Positions 1 through 40,740 of a DNA stretch of 56,983 nucleotides are shown piece by piece; within the stretch, counting starts at the first letter, position 1; the number at the start of each line of letters is the position of its first letter. The position numbers and the translations under genes were made by a program. Origin of the DNA: Candidatus Aenigmatarchaeota archaeon (GTDB lineage: Archaea; Aenigmatarchaeota; Aenigmatarchaeia; QMZP01; JAFGSV01). The stretch lies in NCBI GenBank assembly GCA_021163005.1, contig JAGGXP010000018.1, forward strand, positions 1-56,983, in the 5' to 3' direction. The notes below the pieces were generated by a model that was not told the origin of the DNA, searched no databases, and saw only the letters and a program-made list of their open reading frames with translations.

Positions 1-149
1 GAATATGAGTTCGGACAGCGCAAACAGTTATCCGAAGCTCAGTAAGCCTTTTCTGGCCGAGGCATGAAAAAGCCTTAAGGGAAAATATGAGTTCGGACAG
101 CGCAAACAGTTATCCGAAGCTCAGTAAGCCTTTTCTGGCCGAGGCATGC
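1..149 (+). repeat. Tandem repeat with an 82-nt period, about 1.8 copies, cut by the window edge. Same family as 38847-39112 but in opposite orientation.
   Basis: atgagttcggacagcgcaaacag... starts at nt 5 and again at nt 87. The reverse complement recurs 3.2 times at 38847-39112. Confidence 0.9.
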
Positions 150-227
150 AGCGCGGTTAACATATCATTTTCAGGGGGAATCAGGAACACTTTAGAACAG
201 CGGGAACAGGGTTCCCTTGTCTCCGCT

Positions 228-412
228 GCTGCGGAAACTGCCGTAAAAAGGTTACTAAACAACATCCCGCGTAAACACCTTCATGTTTTTCGTTAAGCTT
301 TTGGCGCAAGCGGAAGCTGCCGTAAAAAGGTTACTAAACAACATCCCGCGTAAACACCTTCATGTTTTTCGTTAAGCTTTTGGCGCAAGCGGAAGCTGCC
401 GTAAAAAGGTTA
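228..412 (+). repeat. Tandem repeat with a 79-nt period, 2 full copies plus a partial one.
   Basis: ccgtaaaaaggttactaaacaacatcccgcg... starts at 241, 320 and 399. The array ends with an inverted copy of the ttttcgttaa segment. Confidence 0.9.
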
Positions 413-491
413 AGCGTTAACGAAAAGTCCGGCTCCGCCGGTATAAAGCGCTTCCCGGAATCATTTTAGAAAAAGTCCTCGCGGAACTGCT

Positions 492-929
492 TCAGGCATG
501 TTCCCTGCGGTTCAGCATCCCAGCTTCCCTGTACAGCTCTTCAGGGATGCTGTCGCAGAGCGGGAGGCTCGACTTGTTGCCGGAAACTTCCAGCAGTTCG
601 TAGACCTCTGGATTGACCTTTATCCTGAGCTTTCTGCCCTTGGATTCTACATAGTGCTTCATGCTCTCCAGCTCCTTTATAGCTGCGCTGTCAACGAAGT
701 GGGCATCGCTCAGGTCAATGTACACTTCCGCCGCCCCTGTTTCGTCCATGAATCTGATGGCTTCATTTTCAAAGGGCTCTGCAACAAATCTGTCATATCT
801 TTTCATATGTGGTACTAAAAGCGCCTTGTCGATATCGTGGTTGACATAAAAAAAGTCAGCTGTGCCGTTATGTATTATGTAGCTTCCCTCAGGCATCAGG
901 CGCATCCTCCCCTGAAAGTTTCTCGTCAT
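492..929 (-). CDS. STAS-domain protein (anti-sigma-factor-antagonist-like fold)
   Basis: The C-terminal half (VYIDLSDAHFVDSAAIKELESMKHYVESKGRKLRIKVNPEVYELLEVSG) has the typical SpoIIAA/STAS pattern. Confidence 0.55.
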   Translation of the reverse strand: MTRNFQGRMRLMPEGSYIIHNGTADFFYVNHDIDKALLVPHMKRYDRFVAEPFENEAIRFMDETGAAEVYIDLSDAHFVDSAAIKELESMKHYVESKGRKLRIKVNPEVYELLEVSGNKSSLPLCDSIPEELYREAGMLNRREHA

Positions 930-9636: not shown

Positions 9637-9708
9637 AGGTCAAGTTGAAAGAGAAGGTTGCCAAAGATAAACTGATAAATTCACAAAAGCATATTTAATG
9701 GTGGACGA

Positions 9709-12700
9709 ATGAATCCGGATGTTAGGCATTTAATAGAAAAATTTGAAGAAATGCTCACGCTGAACGGGCGCAAAAGGGTTTTTGAGGACGGGCAGAAATT
9801 ATCAACTGATTTCATAAACCAAAAATCCGACCCAGAAGCATTCACGAAAGAATTTCTCATAGAGCCGGTATTCAGAAAATTTAACCTGTCAAAATTAACG
9901 GAAAAGCATTTCAGAGGTATTAAGCAAGATTTGAGAAAAGTTGACTATGTCTTGAAAAACCATAAAGGCGAATCATTTTTAGCTGAAGCAAAGCCTCTCA
10001 ATTCTGATTTATTTGACAAATCATCTGATGGCGCAGTAAATCAGATTAAAGGTTTGTTCAGATTGGCAGAAGTTCAGAGGGATTACGAATTCGGCATAGC
10101 CACAGACGGATTAAAATGGATTTTCATTGACAAAAACTCTAAGGTTGTTTTTCAGTACGACTTGAGAGATGAGTTGGACAAAATAAGAGAAATATTAGTA
10201 GGAAAGGAAGAAGTGTCGTCAGAACGGATTGAAGAAGAAATCAGCAAAAAATTTTATGTATGGTATAACGCACTTCTTCACGGAGGAAAATACAAAGACC
10301 ATGAAAACAAAACCGGAACAATTTCAACCAAAGATTGCTTGGTTGAAAATATTCTTTTTGTTTCAAAGCCCGAAGACAAGAAACAGATAGCACAAACAAT
10401 TATGGACAGGCTCATTTTCATAAAATTCCTGCAATCAAAAGAAATTGTCGGCTATGATATCCTTAAGTATCTATCAAGCTTGGAAGAAAATATCCTGAAC
10501 GAAAAAATGAAACAACTGTTTTTTTCCGTGCTGAATACGAAAGAAAGTGAAAGAGTTGACATTGACCCCAAATTCAAAGGAATTCCGTATCTGAACGGCA
10601 GTCTGTTCGTAAGGACTGATGCAGAAACGAGAAATCCTGATTATAAGATAAGGGCTTTCATACTGAAAAAAGTCATAAAATTCTTGGACTCTTTCAAGTT
10701 CGTTCATACAGAAGACGTGTCCAACAAAAAAATCTTAGACCCTGAGATTCTTGGCTATATCTTTGAAAGGGCCATGACAGCCACGGACAGAAAAGGGACA
10801 GGTGCTTATTACACACCAAAGACCATAACGACCTACATATCAAAAAATACAATTCATCCTGTCATTGTCAAGAAAGTGAACAAACTGCTGAAAGAAAAAG
10901 GTTATAAAGACTCCGAATTGCTTAAAGACATAGAAGAAGTTTACAGGTTAAGGGAATCCACATTAGGAGAGGTTTTCAGCAAAATTATTCTCAATCTGAG
11001 AGTATGCGACAACGCCTGCGGCTCTGGGGCCTTTTTGCTGGCAGCTGCCGATGTATTACTGAAGGTTTACCAGAGAATAAAAGAGGAATTGAGATTAAGA
11101 AATTCTGAAATATCAATGAGAAAACTGATTTTGCAGAATAACCTTTATGGCGTGGATATAAACCCGAACGCCATTGAAATAGCAAAGCTGAGATTATGGC
11201 TGTGGCTTGTAACCGCATACGAGCCTGACAAAGTTGAGCCTTTGCCAAACATAGATTATAACCTACGGGTAGGCAATAGCTTAATCGGTTATGTTGATAT
11301 TAGCAAATTCAAAGATCACAAACTAACACTTTTAGACTGGTATAGTGCTGAAAAATCATTGAATATTCTCCTGAAAAAAAGAGAAGACAAAATCAAAGAA
11401 TATAAAACAGCTGCCGGAGATAAGGCAAGGGAGCTTAAATCAGAAATTGATGATCTTGATAAAAAAATAAAAAAACTGCTTGATATAAATCTGTTCCAAG
11501 AAATTAGCAAGAAAACAAAAATAGACGAGGAAGAATTCAGAAAAATCAACCCGTTCCATTGGGGCTTTGAATTCTATGATATTTTCGATGGCGACGGAGA
11601 GACAGATGAAAAAGGATTTGATGCTATTATAGGAAATCCGCCTTACATAAGAATACAAAATCTTAAATTAGAATCTCCTGCACAAGTAGAGATATTCAAA
11701 AAAATATACAAAACGGCGTCTAAAGGAAATTATGATATTTACGTTTTGTTCGATGAACGATCATTAAAATTAGTAAATGATGTTGGAATATTGGGTTATA
11801 TTCAACCACATAAATTTTTCCAAGCAAATTATGGAGAGGCACTCAGAGGAATTATTTCACGAAATAAATACCTCAGGGAAATTGTAAACTTCATGGATCA
11901 ACAGGTCTTTGTTGGAGCTACAACATATACATGCTTGTTGTTCTTAAGCAAACAGGAACACGAAAACTTTAGGTACGCCCAAATTGATAGAGTAGTTAAT
12001 TTATCTAACCAGCTTGAACAAATTGAACTGAATAAGAAAACAAATATAAAAATCGAGATTATACCTAGCACTTTAGTTTCTAGCTCTCCCTGGTCATTTG
12101 GAGTTGGACAAGAAATATCGATTTTATCTAAACTCAAATCAATTGAAAGCAACCTTGATTCCGTAACTGAAAGGATATTTCAAGGTGTTAGAACAGGAAT
12201 AGATGATATTTTTGTTCTAGATATAAGAAAAATAAAGGGCAAAAAAATATTAGGATTTTCTAAAGCATTGAAGAAAGATGTTGAAGTCGAATTAGGCATT
12301 ACATTTCCATTGGTTAAAGGGGAACAAATGTTAAGGTATTCCATAGATGATGCTAAAAAGAGGATTATTGTGCCATATTATGTAGACGAAAAATATCATT
12401 TAATTAAAGAAAGTGAAATGAAATTAAAGTATCCTCTTTGTTGGGAATATTTGAAAGAAAATAAAGAAATTTTAGAGAAGAGAGAAAGGGGTAAAATTGC
12501 CAAAATTGGTTGGTGGGGGTTTAGTAGAACACAGAATATTGATATAATAAGGAGGCAAAAAATTCTTACTGCTGATTTAGCTAACCATAACTCATTCAGC
12601 CTTGATGAAACTGGTGAAATACATTTCACAAGTGGTTATGGAATAATACCAAAAAAAGACTATCCAATAAAATTACTTTTGACTATTCTGAATAGTAAAT

Positions 12701-12957
12701 TGCTAGAGTGGTATTTACGAAAGATATCAACCACATTTAGAGGAGGTTATTATTCTTGTGAATATAGATTTATCAAAAACTTGCCTATTATAGAAGCAAA
12801 TAAAATTGAGAACAATATTAAGAACAAGCTCATTTCTCTTTGCGAAAAGGCTTTAAATGGCGATAAGAAATCTGAAAGTGAAATAGATATGCTGATTTAC
12901 AGAATCTACGGAATAACTAACGAAGAACAAAAAATCATAGAGGAGAGTTTGAAGTAA
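9709..12957 (+). CDS. Single-chain Type IIG/IIL-like restriction-modification enzyme (N-terminal PD-(D/E)xK nuclease, gamma-class N6-adenine methyltransferase, C-terminal specificity region)
   Basis: VDYVL...LAEAKP (9940-9993) looks like D...ExK. SAM motif I is DNACGSGAF (11008-11031). Catalytic motif IV is GNPPY (11631-11645). A C-terminal region of about 400 aa follows. The gene is AT-rich. Confidence 0.8.
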   Translation: MNPDVRHLIEKFEEMLTLNGRKRVFEDGQKLSTDFINQKSDPEAFTKEFLIEPVFRKFNLSKLTEKHFRGIKQDLRKVDYVLKNHKGESFLAEAKPLNSDLFDKSSDGAVNQIKGLFRLAEVQRDYEFGIATDGLKWIFIDKNSKVVFQYDLRDELDKIREILVGKEEVSSERIEEEISKKFYVWYNALLHGGKYKDHENKTGTISTKDCLVENILFVSKPEDKKQIAQTIMDRLIFIKFLQSKEIVGYDILKYLSSLEENILNEKMKQLFFSVLNTKESERVDIDPKFKGIPYLNGSLFVRTDAETRNPDYKIRAFILKKVIKFLDSFKFVHTEDVSNKKILDPEILGYIFERAMTATDRKGTGAYYTPKTITTYISKNTIHPVIVKKVNKLLKEKGYKDSELLKDIEEVYRLRESTLGEVFSKIILNLRVCDNACGSGAFLLAAADVLLKVYQRIKEELRLRNSEISMRKLILQNNLYGVDINPNAIEIAKLRLWLWLVTAYEPDKVEPLPNIDYNLRVGNSLIGYVDISKFKDHKLTLLDWYSAEKSLNILLKKREDKIKEYKTAAGDKARELKSEIDDLDKKIKKLLDINLFQEISKKTKIDEEEFRKINPFHWGFEFYDIFDGDGETDEKGFDAIIGNPPYIRIQNLKLESPAQVEIFKKIYKTASKGNYDIYVLFDERSLKLVNDVGILGYIQPHKFFQANYGEALRGIISRNKYLREIVNFMDQQVFVGATTYTCLLFLSKQEHENFRYAQIDRVVNLSNQLEQIELNKKTNIKIEIIPSTLVSSSPWSFGVGQEISILSKLKSIESNLDSVTERIFQGVRTGIDDIFVLDIRKIKGKKILGFSKALKKDVEVELGITFPLVKGEQMLRYSIDDAKKRIIVPYYVDEKYHLIKESEMKLKYPLCWEYLKENKEILEKRERGKIAKIGWWGFSRTQNIDIIRRQKILTADLANHNSFSLDETGEIHFTSGYGIIPKKDYPIKLLLTILNSKLLEWYLRKISTTFRGGYYSCEYRFIKNLPIIEANKIENNIKNKLISLCEKALNGDKKSESEIDMLIYRIYGITNEEQKIIEESLK

Positions 12958-12966
12958 GGTGTTCAA

Positions 12967-14121
12967 ATGCCGAGAAAATCTATAAAGATTGACGTGAAGC
13001 CTGATGTTTTCAAATGGCTCAGGGTGAGTGCCGGCTGGAATATTGAGGAAGTAAGCAAAAGAATAAAAACGAGTCCTGAAACTGTGAAAGCCTTTGAAAC
13101 AGGAGATAAAACACCTACTTTTAGGCAGCTGAAAGAATTGTCCCGAAGCTTCAGAAGGCCCGTGGCGGCATTTCTGCTTCCGGAACCCAAGAAGGAAAAG
13201 GGAAAACCGAAGGATTACAGATTCATTCCAGGCAGGAGTGGAATATTTGATAAAAAAACTATACTTGTCTTAAGGGAAGCACGGAGCCTACAGGAAGCAG
13301 GAAAGGATTTATCCAGTAATATTGAATACGAAACTAAGGCGAAAGTTGAAAAGGTTGGGCTTTCAGCTGATCCTGAAAAAATAGCAAAAAAATACAGGGA
13401 AGTCTTCGGATTGACCGAAGAAAAACAAAAAAGATTCAAAAGGACCTATGACTTATTCAATTATCTGAGGGACATCCTTGAGGACATGAATATTCTTGTA
13501 TTTCAGTTTTCTATGCCAGTGGAAGATGCAAGAGGTTTTGTTTTGTCGGATGAATCCCCAGCTGTCATAGTTGTCAACACTATGGATACAATAGAGGCAA
13601 GATTATTTTCTTTGATGCACGAGTTTGCACATATACTGTTGGGGCAATCTGTGATAGATTTTCCAGACATCTCGTCGTCAGTCAGGAACAGCGTTGAAAA
13701 ATGGTGCAATGAGTTTGCAGCATCGGTGCTTCTTCCTAAAGAAATAGCGAGGGTATTATTTGAAGCAAATCGTGGTAATTTGATAGAGAGAACGAGGCTT
13801 AATTATTTGTCGAGAAAATACAAAGTCAGCAAAGCTATGCTTTTATTTAATATGATGAAGATGGGTTATATAACAAAAACTGAATACGAAAACAAACTCA
13901 GCATATATCATCCAAAAGAGGCAGAAGCAAAAAAGAAGGGTGGGAAAGCCGGTGGTGGAATTCCAGCGGATAAGAGGTGCATTTCAAAGGTCGGAACCAA
14001 ATTTGTTTCTCTTGTGGCTAACAATTACGACCATGGTTATATAACCTATACTGACGCCCTGAATTATCTTTCGATAAAATCCAAAAACTTTGACAAAGTG
14101 CTGGCAAAGGCGATGAAATGA
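12967..14121 (+). CDS. XRE-type HTH fused to an ImmA/IrrE-family zinc metallopeptidase
   Basis: N-terminal HTH (WNIEEVSKRIKTSPETVKAFETGDKTPTFRQL). HEFAH zinc motif at 13618-13632. Overlaps the next gene by 4 nt. Confidence 0.8.
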   Translation: MPRKSIKIDVKPDVFKWLRVSAGWNIEEVSKRIKTSPETVKAFETGDKTPTFRQLKELSRSFRRPVAAFLLPEPKKEKGKPKDYRFIPGRSGIFDKKTILVLREARSLQEAGKDLSSNIEYETKAKVEKVGLSADPEKIAKKYREVFGLTEEKQKRFKRTYDLFNYLRDILEDMNILVFQFSMPVEDARGFVLSDESPAVIVVNTMDTIEARLFSLMHEFAHILLGQSVIDFPDISSSVRNSVEKWCNEFAASVLLPKEIARVLFEANRGNLIERTRLNYLSRKYKVSKAMLLFNMMKMGYITKTEYENKLSIYHPKEAEAKKKGGKAGGGIPADKRCISKVGTKFVSLVANNYDHGYITYTDALNYLSIKSKNFDKVLAKAMK

Positions 14122-14612
14122 CTTCTAATTATTATGTTATTGATACATCATCATTGGTTGGGTTGAATAGACACAATCCAATTGACGTTTTTCCCGGTTT
14201 ATGGAAGAAACTGGAAGGATTGGTTAATAAAGAAAGGTTGGTTGCACCGCGAGAAGTGATGTATGAAATCCTTCAAAATGATGATCATCTATCCAAATGG
14301 GTAAAAAAACAGAAAAGGATGTTCAAAGATCCTACTCCAAGACAAATAGAACTTGTGAAAGAAATAGTAAGCAGATATCCCTCTTTGATAAATCTTGACA
14401 ACAAATACAGTGCAGACCCTTGGGTCATAGCATTGGCAAAAGAATTGGCGACAAATCCACAGACAACGGTATTTTATATAAAAAGAATTGTTGTATCAGA
14501 AGAGAAGCTGAGAGGAAATAAAATTAAAATCCCCCTAGTATGCAACAATTATCAAATAGAAAATATGGATATAGTAACGATGTTTAGAACTGAGGGTTGG
14601 AAGTTTGAATAA
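14118..14612 (+). CDS. DUF4411 PIN-like nuclease-fold protein
   Basis: YVIDTSSLV at the N-terminus, ...PREVMYEI..., SADPWVIALAKE. This is the typical DUF4411 pattern and the typical partner of ImmA/IrrE-HTH proteins. Confidence 0.7.
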   Translation: MTSNYYVIDTSSLVGLNRHNPIDVFPGLWKKLEGLVNKERLVAPREVMYEILQNDDHLSKWVKKQKRMFKDPTPRQIELVKEIVSRYPSLINLDNKYSADPWVIALAKELATNPQTTVFYIKRIVVSEEKLRGNKIKIPLVCNNYQIENMDIVTMFRTEGWKFE

Positions 14613-15011: not shown

Positions 15012-17753
15012 TTACCTGTACCTCAGGATGCCTGCGAGGCCGCCCATTTCGTAAAGCTGCTCGCCCTCGTGCGTATCGACCGAGACTATTTCGAGTTTCG
15101 TGCCCACGTTTTCCGCGAACTTGTCGAGGACCTCTATGCCGTCGGTTTCTTTTTCCACTTCCACGCTTCCGCCGCAGTCGCATTTCAGCTCTCTGATTTT
15201 GTCCTTTTTGACCATCTTCCTGATTTTCTTCCCGCAGGCGCTGCACTTCCCTTCGACTTCCACCAAGTCGAAGTCCTCGGAAACCAGCAGTATCTCAACA
15301 GAGCCGCTTTCGAGCGCCTTCAGCGTCTCATGTATGCCATATACAGCGAGGCCGTTGTCCTTTGAGAGTTCTGAGAAGAAGCGTTCCAGAAGCTTCCTCT
15401 CCCTTGTCACGGACGCCTCTGCCAGTATGTCCTCGGCTCTTGCAATCATCTCCTCGAGCCCCGGAACGCCTGTATAGGACGTGTCGATGACGCCTATTAC
15501 CTTTGACTTTATGTCAGTCGGGATGTGGTCGCTGTTGAAGAACATGTCCTTTATCGGCCCCGGGCCGCCTATGAGTATGCCTTTCATGTCCTTGGTCTCG
15601 CGGAAATATGAGGTAGCTATCTCCGCCGTCTTCTTGAGGTGGTCGTTCAGCAGTCCTTCCCTGACGCGCGCATAACGGGCCTGTGAATTGTGGACTATGA
15701 TGCCGTTCGCCATGAAGTTCCTGTATTTTGGCACTTCCATGTCGTAGAACTTCCCGTCAGGCCTGACCTTCTCTATCGACTTTATCCTTGCTGATATGAG
15801 CCCGGATTCAGCCATCGAGCGGAGGGACGAGAGAGCGGCGGCTGCCTTGGGAGAACTGCCGAGCTTCTTTTCTATGGTTTTCATGATGTTCCTGTGGAAA
15901 ACCGGATAGCTCATTCCCTTCCTGTCGAAAAAGAAATCCTGGACCTTCGGGAAATCATCAGTCGTGAGGCCCAGCTCGTGTATGAGTCTGAGCACGTGGC
16001 TTCCGAGGAACGGTATCTGGTCCGTGTAGGTGTTTCTGGAAGCTGTCTTCGTTATCTCTGAAAGGACTCCGGCCTTCTTCGCGGAAAGCAGTGGTATATG
16101 CTTTGAAAACCTCAGGAGGGACTCTCCGTCTGTTATGACGAGGGCGTATCTCATGTGCCGGGCGAAGCTTCCCCTCGCCGGCACGGCCTTCATAGAACTG
16201 ATGATGCCGAACCTCAGGAGGAGGAGCTGCAGCTTTGCTATTATATGGCGCTCCTTCATCGTTATCCCTGCCGAGCCGTTGCTTTTGGTTGCATAGCCTT
16301 CTGCATCCCATATGCCGCCTACGAAATGGGCTACAACGTCCGGCGGGGACATGGTTATGGACTCCGGTATGTCCCTCTCGCTGTTTTTGAATACCTCCGG
16401 GAAGCTCTTGCGCAGCATGTCGCACAGGTGCCTTGAATGGAGCCTTGTTTCATGGTAGTTTCTGCCGCCCCTCTTCCTGGGAGAAGCCCTGACACCGAAG
16501 AGCTTTTCGGAAATCCGGGAGTACTCCTCAGCGAGAGCGCGGTCTCCTTCGTTCAGCGTCAGCCGGTTTTTCTCTATGCCACCGTCGCCGATGAAATACC
16601 CAATGAATCTCGCCGCATCCCTTGTCAGCATATTTGGCCATTTTATCGCCGGAGCAGCATTTGCTACTCTGCTCATGGCGGAACGGGGGAGAGCATACGC
16701 GCCGAGAATCCTCTCGAGCAAATCGGAACCCGGTTCCCTTTCGCCCCTCTCGAACTTGGATATGAATGTCTGGGAAACGCCTGCCTTCTCCGCAACCTGC
16801 CTCTGCGTGAGCCCGAGGGACCTCCTCTTTCCCGCGAGAAATTTCCTGCCCTGCTCCGTGACCCTGTGAATCACGGGCGCTTCCGCTTCTATGCTCTGCA
16901 TGCTGCCACTGAAATCAAGCGACCTGAGGCAGAGCAGCCTCTCGCCTGCTGAAAGCTCGCCGGCAGCCTTCGTGCCGAACCCGTCGGGTGTGGGAACGAA
17001 GAATTTGTGCTCAGGTGTCACTGTTATGCTCATGGACGGGGCCTTGGTCGAGATTCTCAGCGCTTCATTGCTTTTTCTGACAAAATAATGGGCATGCCTG
17101 GCGGCGGCACGTGTCATCCTGCTGAAATCATATGAGACGAATTTCTCGCTGCCTATCTCGCTTACCTTTTTTATCCTTCCGTCCGAAAGCTGCATAAAAC
17201 TGTCTTCATGGACGCACCACCCGCCTTTCTTCGTCTTTCCGGGAACAAGGGACTCTATGTGCTTCAGCGACTCTATGCGCTTTCCCGCAAGAAGCCCTAT
17301 CTCAGAGTCAGACTTGTCGAGCACTATGAGGCCGTATATCTCCTTCTCCCTGACCATGTGCTTCAGCGGGTCGAGGACGAACGTCTGGTCGCACCTGTAA
17401 AGCCGCTGGTTGAGCTTCTCCGGCGGCTCTATTGCCCAGAGCTCTATGTCGCTGTCCCCTTCCTTTTCGGAAACGTTGCCGCAGAATATGGCGAGCCCGT
17501 TCGGCGGGGTAGACCTGTAAAGCTTGAGGTGCTGGGCGACCTTTTCGAGCGCCCCGAGCACATTCTTCCTGACCGTCTTCGACTTTATGTTAGCCGCTGT
17601 CCCCTGCTCCTGCGTAACCTGAGTGCCGACTATGTTGAGGTTGGCGCCTGCCGGCACGTATATGGTTATGAGCTCCGTATGCCTGCCGCGTATGGAGCCG
17701 AGCTTCTTTATCAGCCCCTTGAGCCTCTTCTGGGCTATGGTTTCCATGGCCAT
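15012..17753 (-). CDS. prf1: Peptide chain release factor aRF1, interrupted by an intein
   Basis: NIKS (TAANIKS) and YxCxxxF (YRCDQTF) are present. ...[10 protein letters not shown]|C...intein...HN|[10 protein letters not shown] aligns with GGQ|S of e/aRF1. The C-terminal domain has a CxxC...CxC zinc ribbon. The first ATG is at 17753; the track starts at GTG 17762. Confidence 0.9.
15687..17216 (-). mobile_element. Intein (510 aa) with a LAGLIDADG homing-endonuclease domain and an embedded XRE-type HTH
   Basis: Starts with CVHEDSF (Cys codon 17214-17216). Block B is TPEH. LAGLIDADG motifs are GYFIGDGG and GGIWDAEGY. The HTH is [24 protein letters not shown]. It ends with IIVHN (Asn codon 15687-15689) followed by Ser. 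Confidence 0.85.
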
Positions 17754-17808
17754 GTCAATCACGTGCTTAAAATTGAGACTGCGAATTTAAATGAGTCCGC
17801 AGAAATCG

Positions 17809-26298: not shown

Positions 26299-26943
26299 TC
26301 AAATGATGGAATTCACATGGAATTTCCTGACATCCACACCAAGTCCGCTGAAGACTGATAAGACTCTCTTTGAGCTATGAATCGGTATCATAAGGCAGTT
26401 GCTTCCGAGTTTTATTGTCCCCGTTCCCCCAATAGCTCCCTCATATCGCCTGTTGTTCATGTTATAGCCGTAAAGCTTTTTGCTCAGAAGAACACGCTTT
26501 GTCTCCGGCTTTACTTTCTCCCACGAGATGATGACAAACGACTGCCTTCCTTTGGCAGCACCGGCATACTTGCCGTAAAGTACTATTCCGTCAGATATCA
26601 TGGAAGGTTTCAGGTTGTCCCATTTTTCGAGACTGCCTGTGATGCAGTTTATCTCGTTTTCAATTCCCTGCATTTTCCAGACTTTCCTGAAAACCAGACT
26701 TTCGTAAAATAATCTGACTGCATTTAAGACCGCCTTTTCTGTGTTTTTCTGGACCAGGTCTTTTTTTGATGGCACGTTTATGAATATGTCGATATCGCTT
26801 TTTTTGCCGGCATCATCTCTTGCAGCAGAACCGAAAAGTATTATGGTTTCAATCTCATTTAGCGCATCTTCGTCCAGACTGTCAAAAAGAAAAGAAACGA
26901 AGCTTTGCGAGTAAGCGATAAATGCTTTATTCACAATCAACAC
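26299..26943 (-). CDS. Nucleotidyltransferase-domain protein (minimal NTase / MNT-like) with an uncharacterised C-terminal extension
   Basis: LFGSAARDDAGKKSDIDIFI is a GSxxR-D...DxD pol-beta NTase signature. Confidence 0.7.
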   Translation of the reverse strand: MLIVNKAFIAYSQSFVSFLFDSLDEDALNEIETIILFGSAARDDAGKKSDIDIFINVPSKKDLVQKNTEKAVLNAVRLFYESLVFRKVWKMQGIENEINCITGSLEKWDNLKPSMISDGIVLYGKYAGAAKGRQSFVIISWEKVKPETKRVLLSKKLYGYNMNNRRYEGAIGGTGTIKLGSNCLMIPIHSSKRVLSVFSGLGVDVRKFHVNSII

Positions 26944-27322: not shown

Positions 27323-27407
27323 GGATACACCTGTATAAATATTTTGATACACTTGTATATAAATGTTATGGTACAGTTGTATCAATTAATTGATACGTTT
27401 GTATCAA
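27323..27407 (-). promoter_or_regulatory. Operator/promoter region with repeated GATAC...GTATC palindromes
   Basis: Direct repeats gatacacctgtataaat and gatacacttgtatataaat. An 18-bp perfect palindrome gtatcaattaattgatac lies at 27379-27396. It overlaps the inverted repeat ttgatac-gttt-gtatcaa at 27390-27407. Confidence 0.6.
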
Positions 27408-27439: not shown

Positions 27440-27655
27440 GTCGCGGCCTTGCACCCTTTTCCGCAGGCAGGCGCTCAAAAGCGCGCTCCGGAAAGTAAGG
27501 CTGCCGCCAATATAAGGCGCTTCCAACACCAAGCTCCCGGAAAGTCCGGCTGCCGCCAGTCTAAAAAGAAGGAAGCGCCGAGGGCAGGCACCCTTTTCCA
27601 CATGTATACGTGGAAAAGCGCGCTCCGGAAAGTAAGCTAACGCAAAAGAAGGAAG
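27440..27655. repeat. Mosaic repeat block immediately 3' of tRNA-Ser
   Basis: It contains a segment of about 100 nt that is near-identical to the reverse complement of 39292-39385. It also contains a duplicated 25-nt copy of the tRNA-Ser 3' end (27564-27588, matching 27644-27668). The module ggaaagtaaggctgccgcc recurs. Confidence 0.85.
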
Positions 27656-27959
27656 CGCCGAGGGCAGGATTTCCAGCTCTCTGAACCGCAGGGAACGTGC
27701 CTGAAGACGGCTTTGCTCATCCTGCGTTAGCCGTCATCTTGCGTTTCTGTTCAAGCCTGCTTTGTGCATTCTGCGTATGTAGGCTGTATGCTTGCTGTCC
27801 CTTGTTGTCCACTGCCGTTAGCCCTCTTAAGCGGGGAATAATGCTTTAAGGGGGCGTATAAGCGTAAGCTATCGTGGCCCCCTTGAGCCTTTGAACCTGC
27901 ACGTCCGAAGACACCCGTTTTCGAGACGGGCGCGTTAAACCGGGTTCCGCCACCTCGGC
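27656..27959 (-). tRNA. tRNA-Ser (anticodon CGA), class II, interrupted in the T-loop by a 220-nt insert/intron
   Basis: Acceptor GCCGAGG/CCTCGGC plus discriminator G. D-arm GCG-GAACCCGGTTTAA-CGC. Anticodon arm CCCGT-CTCGAAA-ACGGG. Variable arm GTC-TTCG-GAC. T-arm GCAGG-TTCAAA[27670-27889]T-CCTGC. TATA ttatataa lies 29-36 nt upstream. Confidence 0.75.
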
Positions 27960-37098: not shown

Positions 37099-37707
37099 TC
37101 AGGCATTAGGTATGCCTATGCCTTCGACCACTATCTTTCCTGAGTTGGCCTCGTTCATCCCCTTTTTGACATCATGGAATGTGACTGTCATGTCAGGTCT
37201 CACTGAAATGCCCATGACCTTTCCTGTGTCCGCGTCAAGCCCGGAAGGGCAGTCTATGGAAACCCGGAAGCAGTCAAGGCTGTTGAACAGCTTTATTGCA
37301 TCAGCGAACTCCGGCCGGACAGCGCCGCTGAGCCCTGTGCCCAGCATGGCGTCGACCGCTATGTCGGCACCGGTCCCTGCCGGATCCTCTGTTGTCTTTA
37401 TCCCCGGGCAGAGCTCTCTGATTATCCTGTAATTTTTTTCTGCCAGCGGGCTCATGTTCTTTGTTCCCGCAGGAAAAAACAGGGATATTTCTGCCCCTTT
37501 CATGAATGCGTGCCTGGCAAACACGAGCCCGTCTCCTGCGTTGTTGCCATTCCCGCAGAAGACTATTACCTTTTTTCCTGCCAGGTCAAAGAAGCCGTGG
37601 ACAGCAAGCGTGGCCCCGTAGCCGGCGTTCTCCATCATCATGGATTCATCCATGCCTGCCTTTGCTGCCTTTGCCTCAGCTTTCTTCATCTCAGAAACCG
37701 AAATCAT
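37099..37707 (-). CDS. nnrE: NAD(P)H-hydrate epimerase (YjeF N-terminal domain only)
   Basis: MENAGYG..., VIVFCGNGNNAGDG, and DAMLGTGL motifs. Confidence 0.8.
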   Translation of the reverse strand: MISVSEMKKAEAKAAKAGMDESMMMENAGYGATLAVHGFFDLAGKKVIVFCGNGNNAGDGLVFARHAFMKGAEISLFFPAGTKNMSPLAEKNYRIIRELCPGIKTTEDPAGTGADIAVDAMLGTGLSGAVRPEFADAIKLFNSLDCFRVSIDCPSGLDADTGKVMGISVRPDMTVTFHDVKKGMNEANSGKIVVEGIGIPNA

Positions 37708-37708
37708 T

Positions 37709-38272
37709 TCAATCCTCCACGAAGTCCGCCTTTATGCCGGCGCCGTCAAGCTTGTTTTTGAGCTCCCTGACAGCGGCCTGTATGTTCTTTATGCTGTCAG
37801 AGCCTGTGCATATTATCTTTCCTTCCGGGAGTATCAGAAAGTCAGCATTGTGCTCTTCGTCCATGTAGACAACACCCTCTATGCCGCCTGAAGCCTTTTC
37901 TGCTCCCTCAAGTGCCTGAGAAACGGCATCAAGGTCGAACGGTTTGTCCATCCTGAAAGCAGCCACTATCCTCTCGATGTCTATCTCAGGTTCGCTGTCG
38001 ATGGAGACACCCACACTTCTCAGCTTTTCGAGAACAACGCCTATGGCTTTTCTGGCGTCCTGTATGCTCTTAGGGCCTGTGCAGACTATCCTTCCCGAGG
38101 GGAATATGAGTGCTGTGGCCTTCGGCTCCCTTACCCTGTAAACGACACCCTGCGACTCCTCGCTCTCGTATTCGGTGTTTTCTTCTGAGGTCACGAGCTT
38201 CTCGATGGGAATTGCTGTCATGAGATTGGCGACAGCTGTCACATCCTCTATCCTGACCGGAAGAACGCCCAT
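37709..38272 (-). CDS. Divergent TBP-like protein (second TBP paralog)
   Basis: Two TBP repeats are recognisable (ALIFPSGRIVCTGPKS and FLILPEGKIICTGSDS). The EQFPGL motifs are replaced by EESQGV and GGIEGV. Confidence 0.7.
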   Translation of the reverse strand: MGVLPVRIEDVTAVANLMTAIPIEKLVTSEENTEYESEESQGVVYRVREPKATALIFPSGRIVCTGPKSIQDARKAIGVVLEKLRSVGVSIDSEPEIDIERIVAAFRMDKPFDLDAVSQALEGAEKASGGIEGVVYMDEEHNADFLILPEGKIICTGSDSIKNIQAAVRELKNKLDGAGIKADFVED

Positions 38273-38311
38273 AATACCAGCTTTTATTTTTTAGTTTAAT
38301 AGAATATTAAT

Positions 38312-38647
38312 ATGGTTAAGAAAAAGCTTTACATCTATTCGAATGTCATCGGCCTGCTTGTGGGATTAATATTCTGCTTTGCGACGTACGGACCCATAGG
38401 GTTGGCAATAGGACTCATATCTCAGGTGGTATTCGGCATCACGCTTCTGCTCGGCTTCATACCCGTGATAGGGGTGATAATCTACGCATGGCTCGCATGG
38501 TTCAACTACATGCCGTGGGTTGTTTCTGTATTCGGGGTGGAATGGGCATGGTCCATAACAGCCCTTTTCCTCTTCAACCTGATTATCTCGATAGGCTGCA
38601 CCGTCCAGGCAATAATAAGGATATTCACTGTGTACTGGCGTTTTTAA
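38312..38647 (+). CDS. Small membrane protein (3-4 TM), unknown function
   Basis: Almost entirely hydrophobic translation. Confidence 0.5.
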   Translation: MVKKKLYIYSNVIGLLVGLIFCFATYGPIGLAIGLISQVVFGITLLLGFIPVIGVIIYAWLAWFNYMPWVVSVFGVEWAWSITALFLFNLIISIGCTVQAIIRIFTVYWRF

Positions 38648-38846
38648 TCAATAGGTGGGTTGAATTGCCTAAAGACGACTTTGTCCACACTGCGCATGTC
38701 GTCGGTGTGCGTTTCTGTTTGGAGTGTCCGACTATGCACTATAATGATGATGCAGCGGTGTGCGTTCCTGTTCGAACAGTGCGATTGTGCTATGTTTACT
38801 ATGAATTAGTTTCTGCATGTTTCTGTTTTAACCGCGCCTTGCGTGT

Positions 38847-39112
38847 CTCGGCCAGAAAAGGCTTACTGAGCTGTGCATGACAGTGTGAACCGTGCGCACT
38901 CATATTTTCCCTTAAGGCTTTTTCATGCCTCGGCCAGAAAAGGCTTACTGAGCTTCGGATAACTGTTTGCGCTGTCCGAACTCATCTTTTCCCTTAAGGA
39001 TTTTTCATGCCTCGGCCAGAAAAGGCTTACTGAGCTTCGGATAACTGTTTGCGCTGTCCGAACTCATATTTTCCCTTAAGGCTTTTTCATGCCTCGGCCA
39101 GAAAAGGCTTAA
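38847..39112 (-). repeat. Tandem repeat with an 82-nt period, 3.2 copies, abutting the 3' end of tRNA-Leu
   Basis: Units start at 38847 (degenerate), 38929, 39011 and 39093 (partial). It is the reverse complement of the array at 1-149. Each unit has a 9-bp hairpin (gagttcgga...tccgaagctc) and a 20-codon micro-ORF. Confidence 0.9.
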
Positions 39113-39570
39113 TGCGGGGGGCAGGATTCTCTGCAGCCCTTTGACATTTCCCGCTTCCGGAGGGAGTCGCACTTTCCATGGGCACACTTTTCCGCTTTTT
39201 GCTGCCAGCGCACTTTCCATGGGCGCATGTTCTTGGAAGCGCATTAACTATTCGCGGAAGCATGGCTTCGTTGTATTTCCATCCGTTCTGGCGGCAGCCT
39301 TACTTTCCGGGAGCTTGGTGTTGGAAGCGCCTTATATTGGCGGCAGCCTTACTTTCCGGGGCGCGCTTTTGAGCGCCTGCATGCTCAAAAGTTCTGGCGG
39401 CAGCCTTACTTTCCGGGGCGCGCTTTTGAGCGCCTGCATGCTCAAAAGGGTGCATTCGAACCTGCGAAGGCACTAAGCCACTAGGCCCTGAACCTAGCCC
39501 CTTAGACCGTTCCCGAGCCCTGCGCGTTTTCGGGTGCGCTTCTCCAAAAGGGCTTCTCGGGTACCCCCGC
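39113..39570 (-). tRNA. tRNA-Leu (anticodon CAG), class II, with a 44-nt D-loop intron and a 328-nt T-loop insert/intron
   Basis: Acceptor GCGGGGG/CCCCCGC plus discriminator A. D-arm CCC-GAGAA[intron]CGGTCTAA-GGG. Anticodon arm CTAGG-TTCAGGG-CCTAG (CAG at 39488-39490). Variable arm GGC-TTAGT-GCC. T-arm GCAGG-TTCGAAT[39126-39453]CCTGC. Confidence 0.75.
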
Positions 39571-39595
39571 ATGTATAGCTATATTATGCGCCGCG

Positions 39596-39607
39596 GTTTT
39601 TAAAAAT
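39596..39607 (-). promoter_or_regulatory. TATA-like box for tRNA-Leu
   Basis: tttttaaaaa lies about 27-37 nt upstream of the tRNA 5' end at 39570. Confidence 0.45.
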
Positions 39608-39621
39608 AGGAGCATCGAGGT

Positions 39622-40740
39622 TTATTCGTATCTGATAGCTTCTATTGGATTAAGCCGCGATGCCTGCCTTGCAGGCGCCATGCCAGCCAAAGCTCCTATG
39701 GCCATAAGAAATGCCGTGGATTCCAGCGCCAGGGAAGGCGTTATCACAGCAGTGAACGAGCCTCCGAGGAAGCCGTTGATGAACTGCACGACAACTACTG
39801 AAAGCACAAGCCCCGCCACCGAGCCGGCGAATGTTATGGCCAGGGATTCGGCCATTATTTCAATCAGTATGTGGCGGTTGGTGGCGCCCACAGCCTTCAT
39901 GACGCCTATCTCCCTTCTCCTCTCGCGGACAGCCATGAACATGACGTTCATTATCACTATACCCGCTATAAACGAAGCTATGGAGCCCATGGCGAATGTC
40001 ATGGCACTCATCTGGTCTGTCAGTTGCTCTGCGAATTTCCGGACATCCTCATCAGTGCCTGCCTTTATCTCTTCTGAATCCCCGTATTCATCATTTATGA
40101 AATCAGCGATGCTTCTCGCCTCGGACACGTCTTCGGGCTTTATTATGACCATCGTCACTTCACCGTCCATCCCGAGGACATCCTGCGCCTTGGCGAGGGT
40201 TGTAATGACACTGTCGTCATCTTCAGTGCCCATCTCCTCGTATATGCCGACAACCTCGAAACTTCTCCCGCCTATTTTCAGGGAATCCCCGACACCGGCA
40301 TCGAGCCTTTCGGCTGCCTTGTAGCCGAGCACCACCTCGTCGGCGCCCTCTTCCGGCGTCCTGCCCTCATCGAGCTCTACTGAGAAGCCGGAAAACATGT
40401 CAACCTTGCTGAAGTCTATGCCCCCGAACCAGCCCACTTCCGGAGTCGTTCCCATGACGAAGCCGCTGATGTCTTCAATGCCGGGTATGTCCGCGAGTTC
40501 GTCTATGACATTCTCGTCCACTTTGCTGTACATTATGCCTTCGAAGCTTATGTCTTGCTTTATCACGGTTATAAGGCCTGAGCTGTAGGCCAGCTGCTGG
40601 TCCACGAATATCTTTATGCCCTCACTGAACGACCCGAGGCTGACAATGAGCAGGATGCCTATGGCAACGCCTGTTATGGTGAGACCTGTCCTGAGCTTGT
40701 GCCTCATGAGTTCGCCGAGAAGCATGTCATACATCATCAT
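39622..40740 (-). CDS. ABC transporter permease, FtsX/MacB-type
   Basis: N-terminal TM, a large extracytoplasmic domain, and a C-terminal 3-TM FtsX module (REIGVMKAVGAT). Confidence 0.8.
   Translation of the reverse strand: MMMYDMLLGELMRHKLRTGLTITGVAIGILLIVSLGSFSEGIKIFVDQQLAYSSGLITVIKQDISFEGIMYSKVDENVIDELADIPGIEDISGFVMGTTPEVGWFGGIDFSKVDMFSGFSVELDEGRTPEEGADEVVLGYKAAERLDAGVGDSLKIGGRSFEVVGIYEEMGTEDDDSVITTLAKAQDVLGMDGEVTMVIIKPEDVSEARSIADFINDEYGDSEEIKAGTDEDVRKFAEQLTDQMSAMTFAMGSIASFIAGIVIMNVMFMAVRERRREIGVMKAVGATNRHILIEIMAESLAITFAGSVAGLVLSVVVVQFINGFLGGSFTAVITPSLALESTAFLMAIGALAGMAPARQASRLNPIEAIRYE

Follow-up and report, generated by a model that had tools for sequence, protein, structure and literature searches.

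A probable tRNA-Leu(CAG) gene with two BHB-type introns, including a repeat-filled T-loop intron of 328 nt, in an Aenigmatarchaeota archaeon

The reverse-strand stretch 39570..39113 of the window, i.e. of the whole 56,983 nt (57 kb) of DNA that was analysed, is probably a working tRNA-Leu(CAG) gene with three exons and two protein-spliced introns of the BHB type. The host belongs to the Aenigmatarchaeota (DPANN), and the EF-1alpha of the window finds its best named matches in Ca. Aenigmarchaeota (89%, 84% and 78% identity). Splicing of both introns, as deduced from the sequence, would follow this layout:

39597..39606, reverse strand: putative archaeal TATA-box promoter, A/T box TTTTTAAAAA, 27-36 nt upstream of tRNA position 1
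39556..39570, reverse strand: exon 1, tRNA positions 1-15 (acceptor 5' strand, U8 A9, D-stem 5' strand, G13 A14 G15)
39510..39555, reverse strand: D-loop intron, 46 nt in the preferred register (alternative 39511-39554, 44 nt)
39455..39509, reverse strand: exon 2, remaining D-arm, anticodon arm (CAG), long variable arm, T-stem 5' strand, T54-A59
39127..39454, reverse strand: T-loop intron, 328 nt, between tRNA positions 59 and 60 in the BHB register
39113..39126, reverse strand: exon 3, T60, T-stem 3' strand CCTGC, acceptor 3' strand CCCCCGC, discriminator A73, with CCA not encoded

The initial annotation of this DNA had placed the acceptor strands GCGGGGG (39570-39564) and CCCCCGC-A (39120-39113) correctly, and its call of a tRNA-Leu(CAG) with two interruptions held, as in-silico removal of both inserts left a clean class II tRNA-Leu for ARAGORN with a flawless cloverleaf. 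A normal D-arm had also been predicted, and indeed both the 84-nt product (46-nt D-loop register) and the 86-nt product (44-nt register) were called tRNA-Leu(CAG). The unspliced gene received no ARAGORN call, even with intron options, and neither ARAGORN nor Rfam (gathering score) reported a single tRNA in the 57-kb window, though two tRNA genes are present. A 27-nt string of the variable arm and T-arm in exon 2 has exact matches in at least 120 archaeal metagenome stretches, many archaeal tRNA-Leu genes among them. A chance origin of the gene signal is excluded by these matches, the ARAGORN call and an intron-less orthologue. The TTTTTAAAAA box is a putative promoter, and TTTAAAAA-type boxes occur at equal distance before other tRNA genes of the intron family described below and before the intron-less orthologue.

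This orthologue, a Leu(CAG) gene on a related metagenome contig (L104), has no interruption and a related promoter, and equals the predicted 84-nt spliced product except for one acceptor-stem base. The window gene exceeds it in length at two sites, by 46 nt and 328 nt; exon 2 shares 98% identity with it over 59 nt (BLAST), and the BLAST alignment of the window to this gene stops at 39556. Relatives with intron-less Ser(CGA) genes were found as well (L154, L155). Since relatives possess uninterrupted Leu(CAG) and Ser(CGA) genes, the T-loop introns of both window genes are recent insertions, and recent insertion leaves selection little time to test them. Both Leu(CAG) introns are evolutionarily recent gains, which is compatible with splicing. 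No tRNA follows the operon in loci with MacB homologues (~60% identity), tblastn found no overlap between the window ORFs and the Aenigmatarchaeota loci, and the proteins at 39622-40740 and 26299-26943 have no exact database record.

The D-loop motif allows two equally good registers. Pairing of CCGA (39560-39557) with TCGG (39516-39513), each followed by GAA and flanked by a GCCC/GGGC helix, had been proposed with all coordinates correct, and the resulting 44-nt intron is possible; however, 39555..39510 (46 nt) is likelier because the intron-less orthologue differs by 46 nt. In the longer register the central helix H is CCCG (39561-39558) with CGGG (39515-39512), the bulges are AGA and AAC, and the inner helix AGCCC/GGGCT has 5 bp; the 5-bp helix, a GAA bulge and the inner helix are visible in the predicted fold. 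What had been described as a textbook BHB core does show the geometry of 3-nt bulge, 4-bp helix and 3-nt bulge, but with no outer helix it is a relaxed HBh' motif and not hBHBh'. In the 44-nt register, exon 1 reaches 39555.

The T-loop insert is exactly 328 nt long, as initially reported. Its placement at 39453-39126 (60/61) was revised, since the BHB register gives 59/60 and 39454..39127; both placements give an identical product because T flanks both junctions. The junction is built from these elements (a slash marks the predicted splice site):

39457..39460, reverse strand: exon strand of the central BHB helix, T54 T55 C56 G57, then the bulge A58 A59 / U (39456-39454)
39129..39132, reverse strand: intron strand of the central BHB helix, AGAG (U.G, U-A, C-G, G.A), then the bulge A A / T60 (39128-39126)
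39445..39453, reverse strand: 5' strand of the inner closing helix h', GCA plus CCCTTT, pairing with 39133-39142 (AAAGGG-c-TGC)

The order is therefore that of a BHB motif, with h (5 bp, the T-stem), AAU, H (3 pairs and the G.A), AAU and h'. The proposed closure by TGCA/TGCA and CCCTTT/AAAGGG recurs in the minimum-free-energy fold, where the inner closing helix has pairing probabilities of ~1.0. At the junction itself RNAfold favours another local pairing, with UUC/GAA and a bulge of 1 nt. A central helix of 3 bp (TTC/GAG, or the TTC/GAA of RNAfold) was rejected, as it would violate the 4-bp rule or leave a T-loop of 6 nt, and would not account for the covariation of position 57; a distance of two bases between the end of the central helix and the splice site can be derived from published work (PMC4090602). 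The h-B-H-B-h' junction is common to 35 aligned T-loop introns, in which the T-stem is 99% and the central helix 93% paired, compared with <50% after partners were slid by 1-3 columns as a control. Across this alignment position 57 covaries with the intron base six positions before the intron end (A-U 14, G-C 11, G-U 4, other 6), and because of this covariation the 59/60 register of the intron class is fixed. The G57.A arrangement recurs in three unrelated introns (L076, L114, L115), while the perfect form occurs in the window's own tRNA-Ser and in L017 and L019, in these two as GCAGG-TTCG-AAT-GCAC...GTGC-CGAA-TAT-CCTGC.

The Leu T-loop intron belongs to a family of the form UGCACCCUUUU-hairpin-AAAAGCGCGC-CCGGAAAG..., whose hosts are tRNA genes for Leu, Val, Gly, Ala, Arg, Thr and Phe in a closed 742-kb Aenigmatarchaeota chromosome and two other archaeal MAGs. 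The closed chromosome holds single-copy members. Family introns in Aenigmatarchaeota MAGs measure 63-183 nt, in contrast to the repeat-expanded 328 nt of the window, and a closing helix of the GCAC/GTGC type is conserved throughout. RNAalifold predicted no structure for a 23-sequence module alignment; the module hairpin was read by eye and then tested, and covariation across the family supports it. The Leu locus has no Rfam match at E<=10 on 821 nt, and 15 kb searched at the same threshold gave chance snoRNA-like hits only. Two module patterns were unmatched in IMG/VR viral contigs, so nothing suggests that viruses were the source of the modules. The intron interior and the DNA behind the gene are filled with repeats:

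39338..39448, reverse strand: identical pair of 57-nt units, in which GCGCGCCCCGGAAAGUAAGGCUGCCGCCA comes after a hairpin CUUUUGAGC-loop-GCUCAAAAG (Tandem Repeats Finder; family hairpin covariation)
39285..39417, reverse strand: three CCCGGAAAGTAAGGCTGCCGCCAGAAC-type motif copies, spaced 49 and 57 nt
about 39160-39215, reverse strand: two further CATGGAAAGTGCG copies
38847..39111, reverse strand: 3.2 tandem copies of an 82-nt unit, beginning 2 nt past the tRNA 3' end

The 82-nt unit is a second module type with its own hairpin, related to the intron module; it also follows other tRNA genes and makes up the entire T-loop intron of a tRNA-Leu(UAG) (L001). Modules shared between the Leu insert and the flank of tRNA-Ser had been noted initially, and copies were indeed located at 27442-27640. 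A 25-nt duplication lies beside tRNA-Ser. Whether the insert varies among orthologous loci had been raised as a check, and it does: the introns of the window, L143, L144 and L146 measure 328, 328, 320 and 279 nt with exons and both junctions identical, in short-read metagenome assemblies whose repeats are liable to mis-joining or miscounting. Variable internal repeat number is as expected for a neutral intron interior. The L144 intron includes the Ser-flank variant GTCCGG. In the window, the Ser-flank hairpin at 27458-27481 is chimeric, its own 5' strand being combined with the 3' strand from the Leu intron; L150-L152 have this hairpin in unmixed form. Two T4 runs in the Leu intron might act in weak archaeal transcription termination, and the ORFs overlapping the intron (39141-39476, forward; 39300-39572, reverse) have no Pfam match.

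Several other kinds of element were rejected for the Leu intron. A guide RNA of the box C/D or H/ACA type would need boxes, and no C (RUGAUGA), D (CUGA) or other boxes and no Rfam match were found. A self-splicing group I or II intron is countered by the same lack of an Rfam match and by a fold of the whole 328 nt whose stability does not exceed that of shuffled sequence (z = -0.62). An integrase att duplication of the SSV or pNOB8 type does not fit, since the Leu junctions repeat no more than 1-3 nt (T / AAT) and no integrase lies nearby. An IS200/IS605-type hairpin transposon was dropped because the modules occupy several different targets and the covariation at the junction indicates selection on the RNA.

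A dead Leu(CAG) gene, invaded in its D-loop and T-loop by repeats or mobile elements and left unspliced while another gene or the UAG isoacceptor serves the codon, would agree with the recency of insertions that intron-less orthologues of relatives lack, with the G.A mismatch within the T-loop central helix, with a BHB register that the minimum-free-energy fold does not adopt, with an interior built of repeats that litter intergenic DNA and with the presence of tRNA-Leu(UAG) genes in the same population (L001). We nevertheless consider it unlikely. Against it stand the identity of exons, promoter and both junctions across four independent assemblies whose intron interiors differ by added and lost units, the flawless cloverleaf of the spliced product, a junction design maintained with covariation in 35 genes and the independent recurrence, three times, of the G57.A variant. 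Moreover, both tRNA genes detectable in the window carry such introns and no intact tRNA exists there. An assembly artefact, in which foreign repeats collapsed into a normal tRNA gene, is very improbable. Tandem 57- and 49-nt units within the intron, the many contigs that terminate in these repeats and a copy number that varies among contigs would all be compatible with it, but the junction from exon 2 to UGCACCCUUUUGAGC recurs in four contigs from three data sets and different assemblers, the junction from the 170-nt unique 3' part to exon 3 does likewise in four contigs and three data sets, and the closed 742-kb chromosome contains single-copy family members.

It is also quite improbable that the locus is in flux between an intron-containing and a split gene, with recombination between modules of the Leu intron and inverted copies at tRNA-Ser inverting ~11.8 kb in part of the population. 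Such an inversion would part the 5' portion of the gene from the 14-nt 3' exon, and joining in trans through the same closing helix would be needed. On contig L141, MacB, the 5' exons of the Leu gene and two units of its intron do run on into the tRNA-Ser 3' exon and intron in reverse complement, across a shared stretch of only ~10-24 nt. L150, a contig of the same sample, enters Leu-intron-type units from the opposite side, and both the chimeric Ser-flank hairpin and the GTCCGG variant hint at exchange between the two loci. Yet contigs break or may be chimeric near such repeats, no contig carries the reciprocal junction into unique sequence, and a separate 3' piece has no demonstrated promoter. 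The window, L143, L144 and L146 all keep the Leu exons in colinear order inside 458 nt, and none of the four has the separate units or the permuted order of a split or permuted tRNA gene.

Introns at 59/60 as such are already known: ARMAN-2 (Ca. Micrarchaeum) carries non-canonical BHB introns there in tRNA-Cys(GCA) and tRNA-Pro(GGG), of which the tRNA-Cys intron is cut in vitro by the cognate EndA (Fujishima et al. 2011, PMC3239211). The parts of that report drawn on here agree with the present case in the T-loop insertion point, the motif type, a DPANN host with many disrupted tRNA genes and the occurrence of an unusual tRNA-Leu(AAG), but describe no common sequence family or internal repeat modules, whereas the window intron of 328 nt belongs to a structured, conserved family over at least 7 isotypes with modules common to tRNA flanks. 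Similar introns in tRNAs of differing identity, implying spread from gene to gene, are likewise described for Thermoproteales as 'large-scale tRNA intron transposition' (Fujishima et al. 2010, as summarised in PMC4033280), and several introns per gene are possible there. Unlike in these Crenarchaeota, the present family resides in DPANN, is anchored to one site with a universal exon half, has a covarying hairpin and also forms tandem units outside genes. The tRNA-Trp intron of Haloferax and other Euryarchaeota (~65-105 nt, with a box C/D guide RNA inside; PMC4090602) is similarly long with a conserved, structured interior, which is itself a functional RNA; the Leu intron differs in having no C/D or C'/D' boxes and no Rfam match, and in sitting at 59/60 and not 37/38. 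Split tRNA genes of Nanoarchaeum and genes permuted at 59/60 in Thermofilum pendens and Cyanidioschyzon merolae are joined through BHB motifs (PMC3218864). They share the 59/60 junction and enzyme logic, and the closing helix could in principle work in trans, but the three exons of the window lie colinear on one strand within 458 nt behind one promoter. One locus varying within a natural population recalls tRNA-Thr(GGU) of Caldiarchaeum subterraneum, where intron gain and fragment scattering (Sugahara et al. 2012, PMC3293823) were ascribed to a mobile element and recombination. The agent there is a 1.8-kb element encoding a recombinase, in contrast to the non-coding 49-82-nt modules of the window with no recombinase gene nearby. 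Archaeal tRNA introns span 11-129 nt in a 2014 review (PMC4090602), and our search of the accessible literature found no account of the UGCACCCUUUU family or of a 328-nt repeat-filled T-loop intron, in agreement with the earlier impression that none had been described. The size, the modular family and recombination at intron modules are new.

In the mechanism that we propose, the TATA-box promoter ~30 nt upstream would yield a single precursor of roughly 460 nt. Each intron of this precursor would present two 3-nt bulges 4 bp apart, and EndA would cleave past the second base of either bulge. RtcB would then ligate the exons and very likely circularise the released introns, RNase P and RNase Z would process the ends and CCA would be added. 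EndA and RtcB were absent among the 20 window ORFs scanned against Pfam (of 168 ORFs of at least 80 aa); DPANN EndAs with an L3 loop have been linked to disrupted tRNA genes (PMC5829648). In the D-loop intron, the D-stem 5' strand would pair with the intron 3' end. In the T-loop intron, the T-stem would serve as outer helix and GCA+CCCUUU with AAAGGG+UGC as inner helix, while the universal T54-T55-C56-R57 would pair with the four intron bases just before AA. Because this exon half is identical in every tRNA, one intron design fits any of them, hence the occurrence of the same family at 59/60 of many tRNA genes of the lineage. The interior would be free to vary and may here have expanded from ~65-75 nt up to 328 nt, as modules of the kind that fills tRNA flanks were duplicated and exchanged.

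As a tentative reading with some, though limited, chance of being right as a whole, the UGCACCCUUUU...YGRRAA element could be a lineage-specific mobile intron whose 3' end, being complementary to the universal T-loop, lets it settle at 59/60 of any tRNA. Its modules would multiply in introns and tRNA flanks, their recombination would shuffle tRNA genes among loci and could, inside a single population, convert a gene with an intron into a split one, and modules cut from tRNA precursors may persist as stable (circular) RNAs with arrays of a GGAAAG protein-binding loop. If true, this would show in progress the transition from tRNA introns to split tRNAs that has been proposed. The family also offers a concrete cause for the incomplete tRNA sets of DPANN genomes in published surveys (PMC5829648), with a searchable signature, GGTTCRAA-UGCACCCUUUU...GUGC-YGRR-AA-U. 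At ~2.5 times the longest archaeal tRNA intron of the 2014 review, the Leu intron tests the substrate capacity of EndA. Intron-less close relatives date the gains as recent, which bears on the spread of archaeal tRNA introns and the origin of split tRNAs, and the strain differences show intron growth via module duplication and exchange with tRNA flanks.

For the spliced RNA, the predicted junction of exons 1 and 2 reads ...CCCGAG/CGGTCTAAGG... in the 46-nt register or ...CCCGAGA/ACGGTC... in the 44-nt register, and that of exons 2 and 3 reads ...GGTTCGAA/TCCTGCCCCCCGCA, i.e. ...GGTTCGAA/TCCTGCC.... The circularised 328-nt intron is predicted to close as ...GCAGAGAA/UGCACCC....

The locus at 39570..39113 on the minus strand holds a genuine tRNA-Leu(CAG) gene that is interrupted by two introns of the BHB (bulge-helix-bulge) type; its splicing, the precise D-loop register, the function of the repeat modules and the rearrangements are inferred. 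ARAGORN called no tRNA in the whole 56,983-nt window, and a window scan with Rfam at gathering score gave zero matches. Removing both stretches in silico resulted in a clean 86-nt class II tRNA-Leu(CAG), while removal of either one alone gave no correct gene. A 27-nt string that spans the variable arm plus the 5' half of the T-arm matched exactly in at least 120 metagenome stretches, mostly ordinary archaeal tRNA-Leu genes, and together with the ARAGORN call this excludes a chance arrangement. The gene content (TBP, aEF-1alpha, archaeal ribosomal proteins, topoisomerase) and the best named EF-1alpha matches (MAGs labelled Candidatus Aenigmarchaeota/Aenigmatarchaeota; 89%, 84% and 78% identity) identify the host as a DPANN archaeon. 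Handles of the type L001 denote fetched loci or contigs.

Features of the tRNA genes, their introns and the repeat units
39570-39564 and 39120-39113, minus strand: acceptor strands of tRNA-Leu(CAG), GCGGGGG and CCCCCGC-A, read from the sequence
Leu T-loop intron, minus strand, in order: hairpin unit of 57 nt, present twice in identical form; unit of 49 nt; unique stretch of 170 nt holding two further GGAAAG loops; the closing strand
38847-39111, minus strand: related 82-nt unit, 3.2 copies in tandem, immediately following the Leu gene
2-148, plus strand: two copies of the 82-nt unit at the window start
27959..27656, minus strand: tRNA-Ser(CGA), called by ARAGORN only after in-silico splicing
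27670-27889, minus strand: tRNA-Ser intron of 220 nt, located at 59/60, its hBHBh' (full-form) motif perfect
L001 7145-7383, L002 about 40-180, L004 1097-1321: neighbours of the TBP block in contigs 94-99% identical to window 37700-38850

A scripted check returned as correct every coordinate that the initial annotation had assigned to minus-strand features at 38900-39800, including the exactly 328 nt between GCAGG-TTCGAAT and CCTGC, and CCGA and TCGG, each followed by GAA and flanked by GCCC/GGGC. The junction string GGTTCRAATGCACCCTTTT had 15 matches in GTDB genomes (5 bacterial, 10 archaeal). The bacterial ones lie without a tRNA and were rejected as chance matches. Of the archaeal ones, two lie on the closed Ca. 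Aenigmatarchaeota chromosome CP070804.1 (742 kb), seven in a pair of unclassified archaeal MAGs and one in a MAG labelled Thermoplasmatota, and all ten interrupt a tRNA at the identical site. The short family member at L017 reads GCAGG-TTCG-AAT-GCAC ... GTGC-CGAA-TAT-CCTGC. Here the T-stem forms the outer helix, and T54-G57 pair with four bases of the intron in a central helix of 4 bp, which 3-nt bulges separate from the outer helix on one side and from an inner helix on the other. Canonical introns hold the first two anticodon bases within the central helix and are spliced at 37/38 (PMC4090602). By this arrangement the cut would follow the second bulge base, placing the T-loop splice at ...TTCRAA / U...AA / U-CC... 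(slashes mark cuts), thus position 59/60, and the predicted product retains a normal 7-nt T-loop.

Across 35 distinct T-loop introns aligned from the window and fetched loci, the T-stem was paired in 99%, the central helix in 93% and the inner helix in 72%, against less than 50% when partners were slid by 1-3 columns; the paired share is inflated since only candidates with at least three of four central pairs were retained. This filter leaves unexplained the covariation of position 57 with its intron partner (A-U 14, G-C 11, G-U 4, other 6). In Leu(CAG) the central helix TTCG/AGAG comprises U.G, U-A and C-G plus a G.A mismatch, which seems to be tolerated, as three unrelated introns (L076, L114, L115) share the G57.A arrangement. 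RNAfold of the 458-nt precursor gave the acceptor stem, T-stem and closing helix a probability of about 1 each. Its local preference at the T-loop junction was UUC/GAA with a 1-nt bulge over the BHB register, which genuinely weakens the computational case. The tRNA-Ser insert sits at the same position, 59/60, as had been proposed (GCAGG-TTCA-AAG-GCTC...GAGC-TGGA-AAT-CCTGC). The GCACCC module does not make up its interior, and a 54-nt hairpin segment is common with 38666-38719, downstream of the Leu gene.

For the D-loop intron, the 3-4-3 geometry of the initial annotation is valid, but its length of 44 nt is not the only solution. That register (central helix CCGA/UCGG, bulges GAA/GAA, inner helix GCCC/GGGC) can be shifted by one pair (CCCG/CGGG, AGA/AAC, AGCCC/GGGCU) into an equally valid 46-nt intron, and the union of both is present in the minimum-free-energy fold. 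Either register lacks an outer helix and thus belongs to the relaxed HBh' type (PMC5829648). The 46-nt register is favoured by an orthologue, since an uninterrupted Leu(CAG) gene at L104 (metagenome Ga0315545, not the window's; GCGGGGGTACCCGAGCGGTCTAAGGGGCTAGGTTCAGGGCCTAGTGGCTTAGTGCCTTCGCAGGTTCGAATCCTGCCCTCCGCA) has exactly 46 nt fewer in the D-loop and 328 nt fewer in the T-loop. It is identical to the window exons but for one acceptor-stem base, its upstream region is 86% identical over 52 nt, TTTTTAAAAA box included, and the 84-nt spliced product is likewise called tRNA-Leu(CAG).

In the relatives L154 and L155 (EF-1alpha 89-90% identical), the syntenic Ser(CGA) between EF-1alpha and topoisomerase is also intact, and these intron-less orthologues mark both long T-loop introns as recent gains. 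Strains were compared through contigs with an identical MacB gene adjoining Leu(CAG). Promoter, exons, D-intron and T-intron ends are the same, and the insert varies, as the initial annotation had considered: 328 nt in the window, 328 with one SNP (L143), 320 (L144) and 279 (L146), differing by whole 57-nt or 49-nt units. A recent strain-specific insertion had been regarded as refuting the intron reading. The gain is indeed recent, but we do not think it refutes splicing, because the inserts bring exactly those ends that a BHB requires, leave the exons intact and follow a design shared by dozens of genes. Recent gain nevertheless left little time for selection, which counts against splicing.

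Other members of the intron family measure 63-183 nt, occur within Gly, Ala, Arg, Thr, Phe, Val and Leu tRNA genes and follow the architecture U-GCAC-CC-UUUU-(variable stem-loop)-AAAA-GCGCGC-N-CCGGAAAG-UAAGCU-..-CGC ... G-GUGC-YGRR-AA. In the stem-loop, five of nine pairs changed on both sides, none of 500 shuffles came up to its covariation score, and some pairs are G-U on the tRNA-sense strand. Searches of the window sequence matched no Rfam family for the intron, which holds no C/D boxes. The whole Leu T-loop intron, with five GGAAAG motifs in total, is no more stable than shuffled sequence. At L007 3930-4400 (a GC-rich MAG labelled Thermoplasmatota), a tRNA-Val T-loop insert opens with the GCACCCTTTT module and apparently holds a complete, intact tRNA-Val(TAC), then a second 3' exon copy. 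The tRNA-Leu genes at L017, L136 (and L019/L045) carry anticodon AAG (A34), unusual for archaea and also reported for ARMAN-2 (PMC3239211).

Insertion at 59/60 is known from ARMAN-2 tRNA-Cys and tRNA-Pro, whose introns the Leu and Ser T-loop introns resemble in position, and the tRNA-Cys intron was cut in vitro by its own endonuclease (PMC3239211). Permuted tRNAs of Thermofilum and Cyanidioschyzon are joined at 59/60 (PMC3218864), Thermoproteales have intron families common to several tRNAs (PMC4033280), and Caldiarchaeum shows population-level heterogeneity at a tRNA locus (PMC3293823). That a 328-nt repeat-filled T-loop intron is undescribed agrees with the searchable literature, where archaeal tRNA introns range from 11 to 129 nt. 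In the literature searched we likewise found no description of an Aenigmatarchaeota T-loop intron family, of modular, repeat-driven growth to 220-328 nt, of intron modules as tandem arrays in tRNA flanks, or of the explanation proposed here, that all tRNAs share the exon half of the 59/60 motif, which lets one intron fit any of them.

The Leu intron modules do recur beside tRNA-Ser, in opposite orientation at 27442-27668. Copies of the 82-nt unit differ in their second hairpin by compensatory changes (GAG-TTCGGA/TCCGAA-g-CTC, GAG-TGCGGG/CCCGCA-g-CTC, GGG-TTCGGG/CCCGAA-g-CCC, GAG-TACAGG/CCTGTA-g-CTC). This unit accounts for the entire T-loop intron (109 nt) of tRNA-Leu(UAG) in L001, and smaller versions form introns within the D-loop and near the anticodon of other genes. 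Tandem 82-nt units directly follow tRNA genes in the window, L001, L002, L004, L104, L131 and L144, and contigs of several assemblies start or end within them. As the window starts inside such an array, another tRNA gene may lie just beyond its left end. A distinct 79-nt tandem repeat (231-412; 2.3 copies, 99% identical) comes right behind the 82-nt units of the window start. On the reverse strand of L010 (240-340, CP070804.1), two copies of the initial 15 nt of a tRNA (GGGCCTGTAGCTCAG) bracket a module of the 82-nt type. The 3' strand of the module's hairpin is at once the 5' end of this tRNA, so that the conserved GCTCAG of the module may derive from a tRNA D-arm.

In contigs that share 94-99% identity with the window on the downstream side of the repeats, other tRNA genes replace Leu(CAG) before the TBP block: Leu(UAG), a CAU-anticodon tRNA and Val(CAC) in L001, L002 and L004. 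These swaps reflect either strain-level shuffling at repeats or assembly chimeras, all evidence coming from short-read assemblies in which 50-250 nt repeats cause breaks and possibly false joins. Beyond Leu(CAG), L143 and L146 continue with the sequence of window 130-600. L141 (8400-8560) runs from the Leu 5' part through intron modules into the tRNA-Ser 3' exon in reverse complement. The Ser-flank hairpin of the window (27458-27481) is a hybrid that contains the 3' strand of the Leu intron, TTTTCCGC with GCTCAAAA, while L150-L152 have the unmixed hairpin with matched GCGGAAAA (L150 region 1-269). The L141 join and the hybrid hairpin suggest recombination between inverted modules, possibly as an 11.8-kb inversion, and the sequences point to frequent exchange and rearrangement at modules, as a lead only.

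Near tRNA-Ser, a 25-nt stretch (3' exon and trailer start) occurs in exact copies at 27564-27588 and 27644-27668, 80 nt apart, with an antisense intron module between them; it looks like a tandem duplication or an earlier 3' exon relic. Between a 131-aa gene and the plus-strand modules, an AT-rich tandem repeat of 24 nt (27334-27382) holds several TATA-like boxes and could drive the transcription of these modules. Elsewhere, the release factor aRF1 (15012-17762, minus strand; 916 aa) contains an intein with LAGLIDADG and HTH domains, and its homologues in L154 and L155 have 405 aa without intein. The region at about 9700-14600 is low in GC (35% vs. about 50%) and is probably an acquired defence island; its genes code for a fused restriction-methylase of the Eco57I/MmeI-like kind (1082 aa), an HTH-bearing IrrE-like protease and a DUF4411 protein.
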